NCBI GenBank assembly: GCA_043760135.1
Contig: JAYUPL010000014.1
Coordinates: 25,347-89,346 of the forward strand
Direction: 5' to 3'
Length of the DNA stretch: 64,000 bases
Source of the DNA: Candidatus Parcubacteria bacterium
GTDB taxonomy: Bacteria; Patescibacteriota; Minisyncoccia; Phycocordibacterales; CAIZLB01
Positions 10,708-17,332 of this stretch are shown in pieces. Both the position numbers and the translations under genes were made by a program. The number at the start of each line of letters is the position of its first letter. Within the stretch, counting starts at the first letter, position 1. The notes beneath the pieces were generated by a model. It was not told the origin of the DNA. It saw only the letters and a program-made list of their open reading frames with translations, and ran no database searches.

Positions 10708-12486
10708 ATGTTTGAGACTATCGACCAAAGTTTTATAAAAAAAATCCTTAAAGATAGGGGTTTTAATAAGGGTGAGACAGAAGAATTTCTTAACCCTTTA
10801 TATATTGAAGAAAATGGCGGTATGTATGATGGCCGAAAAATGAAAGATATGGATAAGGCTATGCAGAGAATATGGACCGCAATAGATGCTGATGAAAAGA
10901 TTGCAATCTACTCTGACTACGATGCTGATGGGGTTCCAGGTGCTGTGGTTCTGTATTCATTTTTCAAGAAAATCAAATATCAAAATAATGTGGTTGTGAA
11001 AATTCCTCATCGTCATAAAGATGGGTTTGGTCTACATAAACATTTGATAGATGAATTGAAAGTTGATGGTGTAAAATTAATTATCACAATCGATCTAGGC
11101 AGTTCGAATGTTGAACAGGTTGACCATGCTAACTCTCTAGGTATCGATGTTATTATCACAGACCACCACGAGCCTCATGAAAAATTACCTCATGCTGTTG
11201 CAATTTTAAATCCAAAACAAGAAGGTTGTAAATATCCTGATAAGAATCTTTGTGGTTCTGGGGTGATTTTTAAGTTGGTTCATTTAATGATTATTGAAGC
11301 AAGAAAAAGAAAATATGATATTGCAGTTGGGTATGAAAAATGGCTATTGGACATGGTAGGTCTTGCTACCATATCGGACATGGTTCCTTTGACGGGAGAG
11401 AATAGAGTTTTTGCTCAGTATGGTTTGAAGGTTCTACAGAAGAATAAAAGAAAAGGAATCTATCATCTTTTAAGTAAGTTAAAAATAAATGAGAGATACC
11501 TCGACGAATCTGATATTGGATTCTCAGTTTCACCGTGCATCAATGCCGCATCTCGTATGAGTCACGCTATCGATGCTTTTAATTTATTGTCATCTGATGA
11601 TGAGGATACTTGTATCAAATCAGCCGATGCATTAATAAAGCTTAACAAGCTTAGGAAATCTTCTGCTGATAGTTTGATCGGAGATATCAAAAATAAAATC
11701 GATGTGAGTCAAGTTCGTGACATTATTGTGATTGGAGACGAAAATTGGTCACCCACTATCTTGGGTCCTGCCGCATCAAACTTGGTACGACAGTTTCAAC
11801 TCCCTGTTTTCATTTATGCATCCGCAGGAGAAGATGTGTTTCGTGGATCATGCAGGTCAATACCAGGAATATCAGTTGTTGACATCATGGGTCATGTTTC
11901 AGAAGATTTTTTTATAGAATCAGGCGGACATCACGCATCTGGTGGTTTTGCATTTGCCACAGAAAAGAGAGATTTATTTGAAGCCGAGATGAGGGAAGCT
12001 TTTAGAAAATATAAAGAGATACGTGACAGTGCAAAGGTGAACGAAGAGATTGTGGCTGATGAGATATCATACAAGATTACTCATAACAACGTTGATAATT
12101 TTTTAATTAAGCATCTTGCCCAGATGAAACCTTTCGGGATGAAAAATCAAAGTCCGTTATTTTGTATCAAACAGGTGTCTTTTCGTACTATAAAATATTT
12201 TGGTAAACAGAAAGAACACATCGAATTTGTTGTTGAACAGTTCTTAAATGATAAACAACAGATGGAAACAGTCACACCTGAGTTGTTTCAGGACACATAC
12301 AAGTATTCTTCAAACTATAGTAAGAAAGATGTTGTAAAATACATAAGCTTCTTTGCTGATAATTTATTGCAGGATATCAAAGCAAACATCGAGTACGACA
12401 TATATGGTCGTGTTGAGGAGAGTAATTTTTTGGGTAAAAAAGAGATTCGTGTTAAAGTTGAATACATACATGTTTCAGAAAAATAA
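10708..12486 (+). CDS. recJ: single-stranded-DNA-specific exonuclease RecJ
   Basis: DHH phosphoesterase motifs (DYDADGV, ITDHHEP) and a DHHA1-like C-terminal region. Confidence 0.85.
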   Translation: MFETIDQSFIKKILKDRGFNKGETEEFLNPLYIEENGGMYDGRKMKDMDKAMQRIWTAIDADEKIAIYSDYDADGVPGAVVLYSFFKKIKYQNNVVVKIPHRHKDGFGLHKHLIDELKVDGVKLIITIDLGSSNVEQVDHANSLGIDVIITDHHEPHEKLPHAVAILNPKQEGCKYPDKNLCGSGVIFKLVHLMIIEARKRKYDIAVGYEKWLLDMVGLATISDMVPLTGENRVFAQYGLKVLQKNKRKGIYHLLSKLKINERYLDESDIGFSVSPCINAASRMSHAIDAFNLLSSDDEDTCIKSADALIKLNKLRKSSADSLIGDIKNKIDVSQVRDIIVIGDENWSPTILGPAASNLVRQFQLPVFIYASAGEDVFRGSCRSIPGISVVDIMGHVSEDFFIESGGHHASGGFAFATEKRDLFEAEMREAFRKYKEIRDSAKVNEEIVADEISYKITHNNVDNFLIKHLAQMKPFGMKNQSPLFCIKQVSFRTIKYFGKQKEHIEFVVEQFLNDKQQMETVTPELFQDTYKYSSNYSKKDVVKYISFFADNLLQDIKANIEYDIYGRVEESNFLGKKEIRVKVEYIHVSEK

Positions 12487-12997
12487 TATTACAATTTATA
12501 CAGACGGTTCATCCCGTGGTAATCCTGGTCCCGGTGGCTTTGCCTCTATTGTTGTTATAAACGATGAGAAAGTGATAGAACTGGGTGGGCACGACAAACA
12601 TACTACCAACAATAAGATGGAGCTTAAAGGTGTAATCGAAGGATTAAAAGTTTCACTGAATAACATTGATGAGAACATTAAGAATGTAAACGTTTATTCT
12701 GATTCAAAGTACGTACTACAAGGTATAACCACTTGGATTCATAACTGGAAGAAGAACAATTGGCGAACTGCAGCTAAAAAGGAAGTATTGAATCAAGAAC
12801 TGTGGATGGAATTGGATAAGGTGGTTGAAACAGTTTCACAAAAGAAAGTGAAAATAGAATGGCATTATGTAAAAGGACATGCTGACAATCCATATAACAA
12901 CAGGGCAGATATCATTGCAACAACTTCAGCTGATATAGGTGAAACTAAAATTATGTTTGATGGCGATTTTCAGAAGTGGCACGAAAGATTTGATTAA
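12470..12997 (+). CDS. rnhA: ribonuclease HI
   Basis: TDGSSRGNPGPGGFAS, YSDSKYV and HYVKGHADNPYNNRADIIA motifs. The internal ATG at 12470 is the likely start (the track ORF at 12353 is an upstream extension). 17-nt overlap with recJ. Confidence 0.85.
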   Translation: MFQKNNITIYTDGSSRGNPGPGGFASIVVINDEKVIELGGHDKHTTNNKMELKGVIEGLKVSLNNIDENIKNVNVYSDSKYVLQGITTWIHNWKKNNWRTAAKKEVLNQELWMELDKVVETVSQKKVKIEWHYVKGHADNPYNNRADIIATTSADIGETKIMFDGDFQKWHERFD

Positions 12998-13050
12998 AAC
13001 TTTAGAACTTCTTTACTAAAACTTTAACCTCACTGTGTAACAATGGTGGG

Positions 13051-14406
13051 GTGAAGTTTTATATATTTTTTACACTAGTGGCAATAGCAGGGTTTATGAC
13101 TTTTAGAAGTTACAATGTCTTTGATGAAAGGCAGGGGTTTTTGGATGAAAAATTCTCAGAGGAGAAGATACAAAAATTTGAGACTGTTCTTCGGATAAAA
13201 AGTGAGATAACGATCTCAAACTTTAAGATGACTTTTATCGGAGAGGGTAAAGATTTTAGATACAGAATTACGAGTTCGGAAATGTCTGGTATAAAATTTG
13301 GAGACTGTCTTAAAGTTAAGGGAACTATCTTGAGACCAGAGATAAAAGATTCAGGGGAGACTTTGTACAATTTTCCGTATACAGAATATCTGGCTAAAGA
13401 TGGGGTGTATCTTTTGTATCGGGTAAACCAAGCTGAGAAAATTTTAGAATGTACACCTCTGAGTTTTTATGAAAAAGTTAAATTATTTTTTCTCACTAAA
13501 AAGATACAAATTACAAAAATATTTTTAGAAAAATATGACCAACCATATGCGGGGTTAGTTGTCGGAGTTTTGATTGCTGGGAAGGGACTCATGAGTCCAC
13601 AGACTTTGGAGACGTTTAAAAAAGTTTCTCTATCTCATGTGATCGTACTCTCGGGTTCAAATGTGTCGATCATAATTTTTTGTATCAAATATATTTTCGA
13701 TTTAATTTTTTCTCGAGTTAAAGAAAGTTTGCTGGTAGAAATTATTAAAAAGATTTTGACTCTACTGTCGGTGACAAGTTTTGTATTACTCACTGGCGGG
13801 GGTGCTCCAATCAACAGAGCATTCATCTCTAGTTTTTGTGCACTCGTAATTTTTAAGAAAGGGACTGATCAAGTCTATGCATTAACTATTGTAGTTTTGA
13901 TTATGACAATCGTCAATCCATTTGGAAGTATTTATGATCCATCATTTCATTTAACTTGTTGTGCAACATACGGGCTGATTTTATTTTCAAAATATTTTGA
14001 CAAGGCTATAATTTTTTCTTGGTTAAACTTTATACCAAATTTTTTGAGAGAAATTATTTCTGTAACTTTAGCAACTCAGGTTTTTGTTTTCCCCTGCATC
14101 ATTTTTATGAGTGGATCTTTTTCTACAGTTTTTCTTTTGTCGAATGTTTTAGTTTTGCCGCTGATTCCATTTATCATGTTGTTGGGATTTTTAAGTTTGT
14201 TTCCGGTAGTTGGAGGGGCGTGCATTTTGATAAATAATATAATTTTGAAAACCGTATTTTTCTTGGTGAAGTTTTTGTCTGAGATTCCTCATTCATATAT
14301 TTTGTTTGATAAAAAAACTAGTATTGGGATACTAGTAATTTATTCAATATTTGTTCTGTTTTTATTTTGGAAAATTAGAAGCGACCTTCAACCACCCCAA
14401 AGTTAA
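13051..14406 (+). CDS. comEC: ComEC/Rec2-like competence membrane protein (N-terminal and polytopic channel domains only)
   Basis: Competence-domain signature SLSHVIVLSGSNVSII and multiple TM helices. There is no MBL domain in this ORF. Confidence 0.65.
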   Translation: MKFYIFFTLVAIAGFMTFRSYNVFDERQGFLDEKFSEEKIQKFETVLRIKSEITISNFKMTFIGEGKDFRYRITSSEMSGIKFGDCLKVKGTILRPEIKDSGETLYNFPYTEYLAKDGVYLLYRVNQAEKILECTPLSFYEKVKLFFLTKKIQITKIFLEKYDQPYAGLVVGVLIAGKGLMSPQTLETFKKVSLSHVIVLSGSNVSIIIFCIKYIFDLIFSRVKESLLVEIIKKILTLLSVTSFVLLTGGGAPINRAFISSFCALVIFKKGTDQVYALTIVVLIMTIVNPFGSIYDPSFHLTCCATYGLILFSKYFDKAIIFSWLNFIPNFLREIISVTLATQVFVFPCIIFMSGSFSTVFLLSNVLVLPLIPFIMLLGFLSLFPVVGGACILINNIILKTVFFLVKFLSEIPHSYILFDKKTSIGILVIYSIFVLFLFWKIRSDLQPPQS

Positions 14407-14962
14407 CATTTTCAAAGAAGGCCTCAACATATTTCTTTTTCTCTGATGGTGGGACGTCAAGCATAAATGAGTGCTCCCACATATCAAGTGTAAGGATAGG
14501 CTTTAACCCAGTCAGATGCCCCTCATGTTGCTCACCAACCCAAGTATTTATCAAGTTGCCTGTAGTTTCATCTTTGTATAGAAATGCCCAACCAATGCCT
14601 CGTGTCATAGCAACGGTTTTAAACTCTGATAACCATTGCTCATATGATCCCCAAACCTCTTCTATTTTTTTATACAGGTTAGATTCTGGGTTTGCAGCTA
14701 CGGCTCCACCTTCAAATTGAGCAAAATAATACTCATGGTTTCTCATTCCTCCAAATTCAAACCCTAATCTTCTTTTTAACTCACCTATTGTATACATGTT
14801 TGTTTCAGTATCTTTAGATAATTCTGCTATTTTCTCAAGGATAAGATTGGTATGTTTAACATATCCAGTATAAAGCTTTAGATGTTCTTCTACAGTTTTA
14901 GCTGATATTCCTTTGAGTTCTCCAATATTGAATTGTTTTTTTATGTATGTATTGTATGTCAT
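14375..14962 (-). CDS. sodA: Fe/Mn superoxide dismutase
   Basis: LDMWEHSFMLD and the typical N/C-domain histidines. 195 aa. Confidence 0.9.
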   Translation of the reverse strand: MTYNTYIKKQFNIGELKGISAKTVEEHLKLYTGYVKHTNLILEKIAELSKDTETNMYTIGELKRRLGFEFGGMRNHEYYFAQFEGGAVAANPESNLYKKIEEVWGSYEQWLSEFKTVAMTRGIGWAFLYKDETTGNLINTWVGEQHEGHLTGLKPILTLDMWEHSFMLDVPPSEKKKYVEAFFENVNFGVVEGRF

Positions 14963-15015
14963 ATCTTTATTATTTCTTTTGTTTTTCTTTATATAGTATA
15001 TGCTTTAATCATTAG

Positions 15016-15933
15016 ATGAAAGATATATACTATAAATATAACATATTTTACCTGATTTTAGGGTTGCTGATTATTCTCAATATTTGCCTCGGTATTTTCA
15101 TATATATGAATAGAGGATGTAATGTTCATCGTAATATGGTCGCTTTTTTAAATATTGGACAGGGTGACGCAACATATATAGAGAATAAGTCGGGACAGAG
15201 TATTTTGATAGATACAGGTAATAAAGATTCTGGTGTATTAAAACAGATTCAACGAGTTACATCATGTTATAAGGTTCATATAAATAGTCTTATTCTTACT
15301 CATGCTGACCAAGATCATATTGGTGAGGCAGCTAACCTTGTTCAAAAAAGCTATGTTGATCGAGTGGTACATAATGGTTTTTTGGACATGGATCAACAAC
15401 AAGAAAATCAGAGTGAAAATGACCTTGAAAAAATTATTAAGATAAAACGAATACCAACTCAAGATATGGTTAAAGATCAAAATTTTAATTTCAAAAACTT
15501 TGATCTGGTTTTTCTCTATCCAACTACTACCCCATATATGGACAAAAAAGGAAAAAGTAAAAGTGTTGATGATAACGATTATTCGATTGTATTAAAATTA
15601 ACTCATGCTGACTACATCTTCATGCTTATGGGTGATGCACCAATAAAGGTGGAAAAAGAAATAATTAATTTTAATTGTGTTAAAAAAGCTACGAGCACTT
15701 GTCCTCTTTTGAAATCAAACGTGCTTAAGCTTGGACATCATGGTTCTAAAAATTCGTCAGGTATAGATTTTCTAAAAAAGGTTGATGCTAAAGACTATAT
15801 TGTTTCGGCAGGTCTTAATAATAAATATCACCATCCTAACGAAGAGACTATATATAGAGTATACCTCAACAAAAAAGACTCCCGAGTAAGGGAGACTTCT
15901 GTAGAGGGGAATATTGTGTATATCTTGAATTAG
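15016..15933 (+). CDS. metallo-beta-lactamase fold protein, ComEC C-terminal-domain-like
   Basis: HADQDHIG and LKLGHHGSKNSS motifs typical of the ComEC/Rec2 MBL domain. N-terminal TM helix. Confidence 0.65.
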   Translation: MKDIYYKYNIFYLILGLLIILNICLGIFIYMNRGCNVHRNMVAFLNIGQGDATYIENKSGQSILIDTGNKDSGVLKQIQRVTSCYKVHINSLILTHADQDHIGEAANLVQKSYVDRVVHNGFLDMDQQQENQSENDLEKIIKIKRIPTQDMVKDQNFNFKNFDLVFLYPTTTPYMDKKGKSKSVDDNDYSIVLKLTHADYIFMLMGDAPIKVEKEIINFNCVKKATSTCPLLKSNVLKLGHHGSKNSSGIDFLKKVDAKDYIVSAGLNNKYHHPNEETIYRVYLNKKDSRVRETSVEGNIVYILN

Positions 15934-16172
15934 ATAATACCTGCTTTTCTAAGAGTTTGAAAAGCACCATTTTTATTGATAGTTTTGATAGCTCTGGTTG
16001 AAACTGTTACAGAGACTGTTTGGTTTATTTCAGGAACGAAGATTTTTTTCTTTTGTAGGTTTATATATCTTCTTCTTTTTCCGGTAGGGTTAAATTGAGT
16101 AGCACGAGTTCTGTTAGAATACCCGCCTCCGTTTATTGATCCTCTTCCTGTTATTTCGCAAATTTTAGCCAT
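15930..16172 (-). CDS. rpmB: 50S ribosomal protein L28
   Basis: MAKICEITGRG...RRRYINLQKKKIFVPE...VSTRAIKTINKNG matches L28. The track ORF has a spurious N-terminal extension. Confidence 0.85.
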   Translation of the reverse strand: MAKICEITGRGSINGGGYSNRTRATQFNPTGKRRRYINLQKKKIFVPEINQTVSVTVSTRAIKTINKNGAFQTLRKAGII

Positions 16173-16239
16173 GACAAGTATACTATCACAAAGGTTTGAT
16201 TGTGGCAATATATATAGTTTGTATGGTATATTTAATTTT

Positions 16240-16743
16240 ATGCTTAAAATAAAGGACGAAAAGAAAATAAAAATAGCTAAAATTCCAGTACCAGAGACGT
16301 TTGAAGAAAAGGTTTCCAAAAGCATAGGGTCAATTTGGTCACTCTATATTCATACAGCTATATTTGTCCTTTCATTTTTACTTATAATTTTAGGGGTTTC
16401 TACAGAAGAAGTGTTACTAACACTAACAACATTGGTATCTTTGGAAGCAATCTACCTCTCTATTTTCATACAAATGGCGGTAAACAAGAACACCGAATCT
16501 CTTGAAGAAGTTGAGGAAGACCTGGATGAGATCCAAGAAGATATTGATGAGATTCAGGAGGGTGTTGAGAGTATTGAGGAGGACATCGATGAGATCCAAG
16601 AGGATGTTGAAGAGATTGAGGAGGATGTGGATGAGATAGAAGAAGGTGATAATAAAAGAGACAAAGCAGTAAATGACAAGTTCACAAAAATTGATAATCA
16701 ATTAAACTTAATATTAGCTGAATTAAAAAACTTACAAAAATAA
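16240..16743 (+). CDS. membrane protein with C-terminal acidic tandem repeats
   Basis: Two TM helices followed by a repeated E-E-D-[ILV]-D-E-I-Q-E 9-aa unit. Start chosen at the internal ATG to avoid overlap with rpmB. Confidence 0.45.
   Translation: MLKIKDEKKIKIAKIPVPETFEEKVSKSIGSIWSLYIHTAIFVLSFLLIILGVSTEEVLLTLTTLVSLEAIYLSIFIQMAVNKNTESLEEVEEDLDEIQEDIDEIQEGVESIEEDIDEIQEDVEEIEEDVDEIEEGDNKRDKAVNDKFTKIDNQLNLILAELKNLQK
16507..16650 (+). repeat. about 5 tandem 27-bp coding repeats (acidic 9-aa units)
   Basis: Repeating units gaggaagacctggatgagatccaagaa / gatattgatgagattcaggag, and so on. Confidence 0.6.
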
Positions 16744-16744
16744 T

Positions 16745-17332
16745 ATGACAATAATCGCAATACTTATATTAATACTCTCAATTGTAGCTCACGAAGTTGC
16801 TCATGGATTGGCCGCATTGTGGCAAGGTGATAGAACGGCACGAGATGCGGGAAGGCTAACATTAAACCCGATACCACATATAGATATGGTTGGATCAATA
16901 ATATTGCCAGTATTTATGTACATAATAGGAATGCCATTTCTTTTTGGATATGCAAAACCAGTTCCGATCAATCCATATAACTTTAGAAATATAAAATACG
17001 GAGAAGCATTAGTTGCTTTTGCTGGACCATTGGTAAACATTATATTTGTGGCAATATTTACAGTATTACTTCACACAGTTCCAATGAGTCCTGTGTACAC
17101 TGGTGTAGCTCAAATGATTATTTTAATAAACATTGTTCTAGCTTTGTTTAACTTGATGCCAGTTCCACCACTAGATGGTTCAAAAATATTGTTTGCATTT
17201 ATTCCACAAAGATTTTACAGGTTCCGTAAATCACTAGAGGGTAAAAGTTTCTTGTTTTGGTTTATTATCATCATCTTGATTTGGCAAGTATTTCAGCCTT
17301 TGGTTGCTTGGATTTTTGAGAAGTTGGTGTAG
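16745..17332 (+). CDS. small site-2-protease (M50)-like membrane metalloprotease
   Basis: HEVAHG inside TM1 and NLMPVPPLDGSKIL (LDG motif). Confidence 0.6.
   Translation: MTIIAILILILSIVAHEVAHGLAALWQGDRTARDAGRLTLNPIPHIDMVGSIILPVFMYIIGMPFLFGYAKPVPINPYNFRNIKYGEALVAFAGPLVNIIFVAIFTVLLHTVPMSPVYTGVAQMIILINIVLALFNLMPVPPLDGSKILFAFIPQRFYRFRKSLEGKSFLFWFIIIILIWQVFQPLVAWIFEKLV

Follow-up and report, generated by a model that had tools for sequence, protein, structure and literature searches.

In the window, a 64,000-nucleotide stretch of DNA from a Candidatus Parcubacteria bacterium, ComEC is encoded by two genes with a sodA gene lying antisense between them. We consider that this is the Patescibacteria form of ComEC, which probably originated by an old gene fission and whose two products probably reassemble in the membrane. 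Both proteins are homologous to ComEC and retain its domain content and catalytic residues, the break point was located, both halves are under purifying selection, and the two-gene form is conserved across the phylum.

Organization of the locus

The order of the locus is the ComEC channel gene (ORF1), sodA and the ComEC nuclease gene (ORF3), and the three ORFs have exactly the coordinates that a preliminary description of this DNA had given (Table 1). A Pfam search identified RecJ, RNase H, SOD, L28 and an M50 peptidase as neighbours of the ComEC pair. The L28 gene is convergent with the MBL gene and overlaps its stop by 4 nt, as is also the case in the loci L003 and L005; the L28 orthologs have 80-92 aa.

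Table 1. Features of the split ComEC locus (positions are those of the window)
Feature	Position	Strand	Basis
ComEC channel subunit gene (ORF1)	13051..14406	+	451 aa ORF; PF03772; TIGR00361; 30bt_A alignment; AF2 model
N-terminal TM helix, aa 2-34, ahead of OB fold	13054..13152	+	model helix, pLDDT 92-98
OB-fold module, diverged DUF4131, aa 41-131	13171..13443	+	structure
Competence (channel) domain, aa 177-441	13579..14373	+	PF03772
Last ORF1 helix, aa 421-446, ComEC TM10 equivalent	14311..14388	+	AF2 model; followed by 5 final residues
ORF1 and sodA 3' ends, convergent and overlapping by 32 nt	14375..14406		ORF coordinates
Fe/Mn superoxide dismutase gene sodA	14375..14962	-	195 aa; Sod_Fe_C; 1coj alignment
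Divergent AT-rich spacer, sodA start to MBL-gene start, 53 nt	14963..15015		sequence
ComEC nuclease subunit gene (ORF3; TM11-equivalent anchor helix and MBL domain)	15016..15933	+	305 aa; TIGR00361; 30bt_A; Foldseek 9ic4
Membrane anchor helix, aa 2-31, ComEC TM11 equivalent	15019..15108	+	AF2 model; 30bt_A residues 511-530
H-A-D-Q-D-H metal-binding motif, aa 96-101, ComEC-type H-x-D-x-D-H	15301..15318	+	sequence, homolog conservation
Ribosomal protein L28 gene, neighbour outside the system	15930..16172	-	PF00830 at aa 54-119 of maximal ORF

Independent assemblies show these three genes in the same arrangement, with the MBL half down to 40% identity, so that the arrangement is neither a chance product nor an artefact. 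This confirmed that ComEC is encoded here by two genes with an antisense sodA between them. In the comparison with orthologs dS was above 1 (saturated), and therefore only the qualitative result was used, namely that pN was well below pS in both ComEC halves and in sodA; the two halves evolve at similar rates. Since canonical ComEC is one polypeptide, and one non-CPR locus in our survey (L069) appears frameshifted, a decaying comEC pseudogene or an assembly or frameshift artefact might be suspected. However, a complete and intact gene on the opposite strand separates the halves, both halves are full-length with invariant catalytic and channel residues, selection is purifying, and the same architecture occurs in dozens of independent assemblies. 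This explanation is hardly credible, and we regard it as effectively refuted.

The channel subunit

The preliminary description had placed the ComEC N-terminal and channel domains in ORF1, and both were found there. The Pfam Competence domain was matched with an E-value of 1.4e-32 and 113.6 bits (GA 23) over profile positions 5-267 of 270, and the NCBIfam model TIGR00361 (ComEC_Rec2) over positions 83-349 of 663 with 56.4 bits. The protein, whose sequence includes SLSHVIVLSGSNVS, aligns to residues 141-460 of the N. carbonis ComEC 30bt_A, with the envelope reaching 498, and its AF2 model has a pLDDT of 92.9. Six residues (H196, S201, G202, R256, P290 and N365) were invariant in 62 homologs. 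H196, S201/G202 and R256 align with H254, S259/G260 and R307 of 30bt_A. The conserved channel-lining residues of ComEC include an arginine essential for transformation; the published mutants H222 and R285 are numbered differently, and they have no exact mapping to ORF1.

The N-terminal OB fold of ComEC (DUF4131-type, PF13567) is present in ORF1. It was established by structure, because the Pfam DUF4131 model, even with E ≤ 10 allowed, did not match the N-terminal part of ORF1. Foldseek of the ORF1 model against the PDB returned weak OB-fold matches (E about 0.006-0.05) and no ComEC chain, from a library copy that apparently lacks full-length ComEC entries. Ahead of the OB fold ORF1 has one TM helix, whereas most ComECs have three; H. 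pylori ComEC also has a single one (PMC13539106). In the database gene call P0121 the start is 15 codons further in, so that this helix would be cut short. Towards its C-terminal end the ORF1 model contains a strand (356-358), two helices (361-381 and 388-410), a second strand (416-418) and the last helix, which agreed with the published ComEC order beta-NS6-NS7-beta-TM10 (PMC13539106).

The nuclease subunit and the break point

ORF3 had been described as encoding a ComEC-type MBL nuclease domain, and the comparisons supported this. Pfam Lactamase_B was matched with an E-value of 2.5e-8, and the top NCBIfam match was again TIGR00361, over positions 424-663 of 663 (E 7.4e-31, 107 bits). The sequence includes HADQDHIG and LKLGHHGSKNSS and aligns to residues 511-763 of 30bt_A; the best solved sequence matches were all ComEC. 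For the AF2 model (pLDDT 93.3) the top Foldseek structure was 9ic4, a ComEC beta-lactamase-like domain, with an E-value of 1.4e-18. ORF3 keeps every catalytic residue (H-x-D-x-D-H, GD, GHHGS and the distal His), and H96, D98, D100, H101, D207, H241, H242 and H273 were invariant in 70 homologs; in ComEC the motif is H598-x-D600-x-D602-H603 (PMC12455585). The preliminary description had named two findings that would speak against a split ComEC, an MBL domain within the upstream ORF and clustering of the MBL protein with non-ComEC hydrolases. ORF1 has no MBL domain, and ORF3 groups with ComEC.

The Avs1a and 6A-MBL effectors share a weak MBL-core similarity with ORF3 (NF041809, E 6.5e-17; NF058524, E 3.8e-10, respectively), at 61.3 vs 420 bits and 39.4 vs 220 bits, which is lower than the ComEC_Rec2 score. 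A defence-system MBL effector was rejected, as the scores are far below the cut-offs, there is no defence-gene context, and the protein has the ComEC TM helix and synteny.

The MBL protein had also been credited with its own N-terminal TM. The helix is present, but it is not a new acquisition, as it aligns to ComEC TM11, its homolog, which leads into the periplasmic MBL domain. Amino acids 10-28 form the single strongly hydrophobic segment of ORF3, and the anchor helix is present in 69 of 70 stand-alone MBL homologs. K and R were richer on its N side in 46 homologs and on the opposite side in 7; the charge bias of ORF3 itself is weak. Together the two proteins tile the full-length ComEC that has been solved, one from residue 141 to about 498 and the other over 511-763. 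This puts the break in the cytoplasmic TM10-TM11 loop, with all domains preserved. The loop is short, and both new termini would be cytoplasmic.

The sodA gene and its spacer

The sodA product matched Sod_Fe_C with an E-value of 1.6e-22 and 79.9 bits, and Sod_Fe_N with 26.1 bits, slightly short of its GA of 27 (Pfam). Its best solved match was 1coj (E 1e-23), to which all four metal ligands (His, His, Asp and His) aligned. Judging from both SOD domains and these ligands, the antisense gene is an intact Fe/Mn SOD, in agreement with the sodA that had been described on the opposite strand between the halves. The wording that it was inserted there is reasonable, because the halves are directly adjacent in many lineages, but the succession of events is unproven, and a large clade has sodA in this place.

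The antisense sodA means that the nuclease gene is no simple operon partner of the channel gene. Promoters of sodA or of the MBL gene outside neighbouring coding sequence must lie in the divergent spacer, and the nuclease gene probably has its own promoter there, in a region shared with sodA. A sigma-70 consensus scan of 12300-16500 found no site in this spacer; it was uninformative on transcription units, because the overall count of 18 promoter-like sites was at the chance level (18.5 in shuffles). A terminator-like hairpin on the minus strand (14398-14378) is weak, with 5 such sites against 2.1 expected in the region.

The position of sodA could be functional, through bidirectional control together with the nuclease gene or through read-through from the channel gene that yields antisense RNA to sodA, and DNA uptake and degradation would then be coupled to oxidative stress. 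The compact spacer is conserved at 51-61 nt in L002, L003, L005 and L006, L005 and L006 keep a convergent overlap between ORF1 and sodA (35 nt), and an antisense SOD was found at this place in 23 of the 80 surveyed genomes, these 23 being spread over several candidate lineages. On the other hand, other lineages carry unrelated genes or nothing in the same gap, and in one close relative clpP also lies there. The scan gave no promoter or regulatory motif, no Rfam element was found in the region, and tight spacing is general in this compact genome, as the RecJ/RNase H overlap and that of the MBL and L28 genes indicate. We consider a functional role very unlikely and regard the position of sodA as a conserved gene-order feature; a functional link with DNA uptake is not indicated.

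Distribution of the two-gene form

The survey covered 80 genomes. All Patescibacteria-titled loci had two genes, which were directly adjacent in 16; in 23 an antisense SOD lay next to the MBL gene, and in 7 the gap contained other genes. A single fused ORF was found at 20 non-CPR loci. Comparison with related genomes, which had been proposed as a check, thus returned the same split. The two-gene ComEC is the rule across Patescibacteria and the locus is ordinary and typical of its lineage, so that the split described earlier stands for this DNA but is not specific to this genome. The missing ComEC-MBL fusion in CPR was already reported by Méheust et al. 2019 (PMC6744442). That statement was the only one on a split or fission of ComEC that we found in the literature covered, and none was found there that describes the nuclease as a separate neighbouring gene; most subscription journals lie outside this coverage. 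Our survey adds to the published report that the MBL nuclease is a separate TM-anchored neighbour gene in most of the surveyed Patescibacteria.

The SOD-antisense state spans several lineages, including the clade of the window and many Paceibacteria-type lineages. An NJ tree of the concatenated halves was poorly resolved, and the long-branched clade of the window grouped with the fused outgroups, which is probably an artefact. The SOD state was not monophyletic in this tree, and one insertion with losses and several insertions are both compatible with it.

Comparison with known ComEC systems

The two proteins share with canonical ComEC/Rec2 (B. subtilis; N. carbonis 30bt/30bu/32ks; 9vc6, 9vc9, 9vcb, 9vcf) the order of OB fold, Competence channel and MBL domain, the H-x-D-x-D-H nuclease motif, the channel residues that align with those of N. 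carbonis ComEC, and the helix order up to TM10, followed by TM11 into the MBL domain. They differ from it in being two polypeptides, with the break in the TM10-TM11 loop and sodA between the genes; the halves scored 56 and 107 bits, both below the TIGR00361 equivalog cut-off of 190.

The CPR 'unfused' ComEC (fam000603, Méheust et al. 2019; S. epibionticum SEML1_0777) resembles ORF1 in having the OB fold together with the Competence domain within about 450-500 aa and no fused MBL. Deletion of this short type of comEC abolishes transformation in S. epibionticum. In the reports on these proteins the MBL is absent, whereas in this locus, as in most of the Patescibacteria surveyed, a separate TM-anchored MBL protein is encoded just downstream. 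Beside the MBL-less ComEC of S. pneumoniae (with EndA) and H. pylori, strand degradation is the task of a polypeptide distinct from the channel, or is assumed to require one (PMC12455585), as would be the case here. However, EndA is unrelated to MBL nucleases, and the separate nuclease here is ComEC's own MBL domain, which still carries the original TM helix.

One or two systems

The MBL protein might be an independent membrane-anchored extracellular nuclease or phosphodiesterase with an EndA-like role, which would degrade environmental DNA for nucleotide salvage, descends from a ComEC domain and does not dock on the channel. The linkage of the halves is not obligatory, because no Competence gene lies within 5-8 kb of the MBL gene in five Patescibacteria loci (L022, L023, L028, L039 and L045), and the comEC of S. 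epibionticum adjoins no ComEC-type MBL; an MBL of that organism, SEML1_0132, is located beside L28 and the site-2 protease. Two non-CPR genomes (L056 and L080) have stand-alone MBL copies, the intervening sodA forces separate transcription of the MBL gene, and CPR bacteria, which do not synthesize nucleotides, have been proposed to be DNA scavengers (PMC6744442). The phosphorylcholine esterase Pce is the closest non-ComEC structural neighbour of ORF3; this match does not discriminate, because Pce is also nearest to the authentic ComEC MBL domain (PMC12455585). Against independence, the ancestral TM11 helix is kept almost throughout the homologs, in most lineages the MBL gene directly follows the Competence gene in the same orientation, and the two often overlap, and the halves evolve at similar rates. 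We therefore consider an independent nuclease rather unlikely.

The two-subunit ComEC explains these observations better. In this model, a single-chain ComEC would have been split into two genes by an old fission in the TM10-TM11 loop. The first subunit consists of one TM helix at the N-terminus, the OB fold, which is extracytoplasmic, and the Competence channel, and ends just past the TM10 equivalent. The second has a complete MBL nuclease, which would be positioned outside the membrane by the TM11 equivalent as an uncleaved N-in/C-out anchor. That linkage is conserved and TM11 retained suggests that the halves may associate and work in trans. Both proteins probably reassemble in the membrane such that the nuclease would adjoin the OB fold where the channel opens and degrade one strand while the other passes, as in the single-chain ComEC. 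The role may be transformation, nucleotide scavenging or both. The gap between the halves would have been filled by different genes in different lineages, here by the antisense Fe/Mn SOD.

A stricter form of this model assumes an obligate two-subunit ComEC from one ancient fission, in which the Paceibacteria-type nuclease is transcriptionally uncoupled, stands back-to-back with sodA, and has its dosage set independently, possibly with the oxidative-stress response. It appears quite improbable. If true, the same nuclease would have two uses, the bulk degradation of extracellular DNA for nucleotide salvage and the processing of strands in uptake.

Significance

Natural transformation universally relies on ComEC to import DNA across the inner membrane, and recent structures and biochemistry have stressed the cooperation of its nuclease, OB fold and channel in a single chain. 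A natural split of ComEC that is conserved throughout a very large radiation of bacteria would demonstrate that a separate TM-anchored subunit can provide the nuclease. The TM10-TM11 loop would be a site where ComEC tolerates a cut, which is useful for engineering and for studies of nuclease-channel coupling. The impression that the CPR ComEC is without a nuclease is corrected by these results, and the separate nuclease bears on whether these nucleotide-auxotrophic bacteria use ComEC for transformation, for DNA feeding, or for both.

Results

Both the observation and the core interpretation of the preliminary description were correct, and the three ORFs had exactly the coordinates that it gave. 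In Pfam, ORF1 matched the Competence domain PF03772 at aa 177-441 (E 1.4e-32), ORF3 matched Lactamase_B, and the minus-strand ORF matched both Fe/Mn SOD domains; solved Fe-SODs aligned over the full length of this SOD, with four of four metal ligands in place. The two halves covered complementary parts of the NCBIfam ComEC/Rec2 model (663 positions), ORF1 at 83-349 and ORF3 at 424-663, each scoring alone below the 190-bit equivalog cut-off (ORF1 56 bits, ORF3 107 bits).

The split had been said to fail if the upstream ORF already carried a metallo-β-lactamase (MBL) domain and the MBL protein grouped with non-ComEC hydrolases. Domain searches of ORF1 found no MBL domain in it, and the top NCBIfam match of ORF3 was ComEC_Rec2 (E 7.4e-31). 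The structural search with the ORF3 model gave 9ic4, the solved ComEC beta-lactamase-like domain, as the best solved match (E 1.4e-18), followed by the phosphorylcholine esterase Pce, which was also reported by the ComEC authors as a neighbour of ComEC's own MBL domain (PMC12455585).

Positions of the features in the window and in the loci (L) of relatives and surveyed species
Feature	Sequence	Position	Strand	Remarks
ORF1 (channel half)	window	13051..14406	+	451 aa, GTG start
sodA ORF	window	14375..14962	-	195 aa
ORF3 (MBL half)	window	15016..15933	+	305 aa
Terminator-like hairpin	window	13027-13052		overlaps ORF1 GTG (13051)
RecJ/RNase H overlap	window	12470-12486		~17 nt, with the RNase H start taken as Met 12470
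ORF1/sodA overlap	window	14375-14406		32 nt, convergent
Divergent spacer	window	14963-15015		53 nt
MBL/L28 overlap	window	15930-15933		4 nt, convergent
Membrane protein gene	window	16171-16743		between L28 and M50 peptidase genes
MBL, antisense L28, M50 peptidase	window	15016-17332
ClpP protease gene	L002	4705-5259		between Competence gene and sodA
Gap gene, 196-aa multi-pass membrane protein	L009, L010, L013	7200-7790, 1070-1660, 3979-4569	-	Yonathbacteria; antisense, same size and orientation as SOD
Gap gene, methyltransferase-like	L027, L044	7343-7954, 7288-7959		Magasanikbacteria
Gap gene, 784-aa protein	L029	1060-3414
Gap gene, 306-aa membrane protein	L061	4454-5374		antisense
798-aa Competence ORF and separate 291-aa ComEC-type MBL	L076	4514-8834		Anaerolineae MAG; MBL 1 kb downstream
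comEC, apparently frameshifted	L069	6377-8783		Gemmatimonadales MAG, 74% GC
Stand-alone ComEC-type MBL	L056	7683-8744		Cohnella genome
Stand-alone ComEC-type MBL	L080	7866-8828		Armatimonas MAG

The AlphaFold2 models, made from 62-sequence and 70-sequence alignments, were of high confidence (pLDDT 92.9 for ORF1 and 93.3 for ORF3). The ORF1 model consists of an N-terminal helix (aa 2-34), a beta module (aa 41-131) and a helical membrane domain ending in the order strand, helix, helix, strand, helix 421-446. It is reported that ComEC has two non-spanning helices, NS6 and NS7, flanked by two short strands and followed by TM10, from which the chain runs through a short cytoplasmic helix and TM11 into the MBL domain in the periplasm (PMC13539106); the C-terminal elements of ORF1 follow this order up to TM10. 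The ORF3 model is a long helix (aa 2-31) followed by the MBL fold. Compared with the solved structure of Neomoorella carbonis ComEC (801 aa), ORF1 aligned to residues 141-460 (envelope to 498) and ORF3, with its N-terminal hydrophobic helix included, to residues 511-763. Between them, the two proteins thus span the full-length protein without a missing part. We concluded that the break sits in the cytoplasmic TM10-TM11 loop. The preliminary description had given the MBL protein its own N-terminal TM; the helix is present, but by this alignment we concluded that it is the ancestral TM11 and not a new one. The break point is thus precisely defined, which is an addition of this analysis.

Only one TM helix precedes the OB fold of ORF1, an arrangement that has been called unusual and set beside that of H. 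pylori (PMC13539106). DUF4131 was not detected by Pfam in ORF1 itself; its orthologs P0150 and P0194 gave a weak match at the same position. The database gene call P0121, an identical protein of 436 aa, starts at ATG 13096, 15 codons downstream of the GTG, and a start there would cut short the predicted N-terminal TM helix; the longer N-terminus is matched by homologs.

HADQDH in the window is the ComEC-type H-x-D-x-D-H motif (PMC12455585), and this motif together with D207, H241, H242 and H273 was invariant across 70 stand-alone homologs. The N-terminal helix was found in 69 of the 70, and positive charge was richer on its N-terminal side in 46 homologs versus 7 with the opposite bias, the window's protein being weakly biased. 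This would fit anchoring in the N-in/C-out orientation, the nuclease lying outside. The clade of the window's MBL protein has conserved cysteines at Cys35, Cys84 and two more sites in the NFNCVKKATSTCP segment (~aa 221-230 of ORF3), located directly behind the anchor helix and in insertions (RGC, SCYKV, NCV...STCP) that are specific to the clade and missing from more distant homologs; disulfides there would fit an extracytoplasmic location.

All of ORF3's closest relatives come from Patescibacteria/Parcubacteria and are stand-alone proteins with lengths of 250-330 aa, and those of ORF1 (430-520 aa) have the Competence domain, DUF4131 present or absent, and no MBL. Fused proteins of ~700-780 aa appeared in the ORF1 homolog search only from ~25% identity, in other phyla. 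The block RecJ, RNase H, Competence gene, antisense sodA, MBL gene, antisense L28 and, further downstream, M50 peptidase is conserved in the independent assemblies L002-L006, with MBL-half identity down to 40%. For all three genes pN was far below pS; dN/dS against L002 was similar for the two ComEC halves (~0.15 and 0.135), with dS saturated. A pseudogene or an assembly artefact was therefore rejected, because the same block occurs in independent assemblies and pN is far below pS.

L002, with an MBL half 75% identical, has an extra ClpP gene. In L007, which has the same RecJ-RNase H block, 8 nt separate the halves, these lie in different frames, and SOD is absent. Between the L28 and M50 peptidase genes, the window encodes a membrane protein whose coiled-coil tail is highly acidic and repetitive (EEDLDEIQEDIDEIQEGVESIEEDIDEIQEDVEEIEEDVDEIEE) and which gave weak coiled-coil-type Pfam matches only; its orthologs in L002 and L003 have 153-163 aa.

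One genome per GTDB species was scanned with the MBL-half alignment, and the loci, at least 80, were classified by HMMs built from the matches of the ORF1 and ORF3 homolog searches.

Arrangement of the ComEC halves in the surveyed loci
Arrangement	Loci	Occurrence
One fused ORF, 685-911 aa	at least 20	record titles all of other phyla: Cohnella, Paenibacillus, Metabacillus, Gemmatimonadota, Acidobacteria, Fibrobacter, Calditrichaeota and others
Two genes, adjacent/overlapping	at least 16	Magasanik-, Moran-, Falkow-, Giovannonibacteria and others
Two genes, gap 115-201 nt	at least 2	L014, L037
Fe/Mn SOD antisense directly upstream of MBL gene	at least 23 (Competence gene seen upstream in 18)	Nomura-, Zambryski-, Taylor-, Campbell-, Kaiserbacteria, Paceibacterota
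Another gene in the gap	at least 7
MBL gene, no Competence gene in available sequence	at least 8	Patescibacteria
Ambiguous, non-CPR	at least 4	L056, L069, L076, L080

Among the matches listed (80 loci), no Patescibacteria-titled locus had a fused ORF. The split is typical of the lineage and no oddity of this genome. No Competence gene was found in L022, L023, L028 and L039 despite 5-8 kb of upstream flank, nor within 8 kb in L045 of the SOD class or around the MBL genes of L056 and L080. In a crude NJ tree, too unreliable for counting events, the adjacent cases fell mostly in one group and the SOD cases mostly in another, with a few SOD-less members inside the latter.

Parcubacteria-type two-gene ComEC, often with SOD between, was also observed in 15 TPA MAG loci titled Gammaproteobacteria (L025, L029, L037, L052, L054, L061) or Saccharibacteria (L012, L021, L033, L034, L036, L047, L049, L066, L071), whose labels look unreliable.

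Discussion

Two intact, conserved genes together hold every ComEC module and catalytic residue. We presume that the MBL subunit would insert N-in/C-out and dock at the entrance of the channel, beside the OB fold, as its counterpart does in the single-chain protein, in which TM10 and TM11 lie at the periphery (PMC13539106). The docked subunit would degrade the non-transported strand while the other passes TM4-9. The main rival reading is that the MBL protein acts alone as a surface nuclease scavenging DNA, which fits the loci with an MBL gene unlinked from a Competence gene but accounts less well for the linkage being conserved and TM11 retained.

With sodA on the opposite strand between the halves, transcription of the nuclease gene probably begins in the divergent spacer, separately from that of the channel gene; a promoter scan covering the spacer identified no promoter. 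The genes are packed so tightly that conventional terminators would not fit between the convergent ones. That the place of sodA is regulatory is possible but unsupported. In other lineages the same gap holds different genes, or nothing. Genes seem to have been inserted or replaced repeatedly at the junction of the halves. Fe/Mn SOD itself is common in Patescibacteria (66-83% of groundwater MAGs).

Méheust et al. regarded the ComEC of CPR as a family that lacks the MBL domain (PMC6744442), and the structural papers noted that MBL-less orthologs exist, with competence unproven (PMC12455585). The comEC of Southlakia epibionticum (~482 aa) has the OB and Competence domains only, and its deletion abolishes transformation. 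In strain ML1 of this cultivated Saccharibacterium, SEML1_0132-0134 encode an MBL fold metallo-hydrolase (211 aa, PF13483), an antisense L28 and a site-2 protease (supplement, PMC10633639), an order that mirrors the MBL, L28 and M50 peptidase genes of the window, although comEC lies 600 kb away. This MBL may be what remains of the ComEC nuclease subunit, or may have replaced it; the resemblance may also be coincidental. Public annotation already names some of these MBL proteins 'competence protein ComEC'. In a search with most subscription journals outside its scope, we found no paper describing the break position or a nuclease retained in the form of a TM-anchored protein with its own gene beside that of the channel.

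The absence of fusion in CPR is already published. This analysis adds that the nuclease has been kept, in a gene of its own, and that the placement of sodA between the halves is a widespread, probably secondary arrangement.
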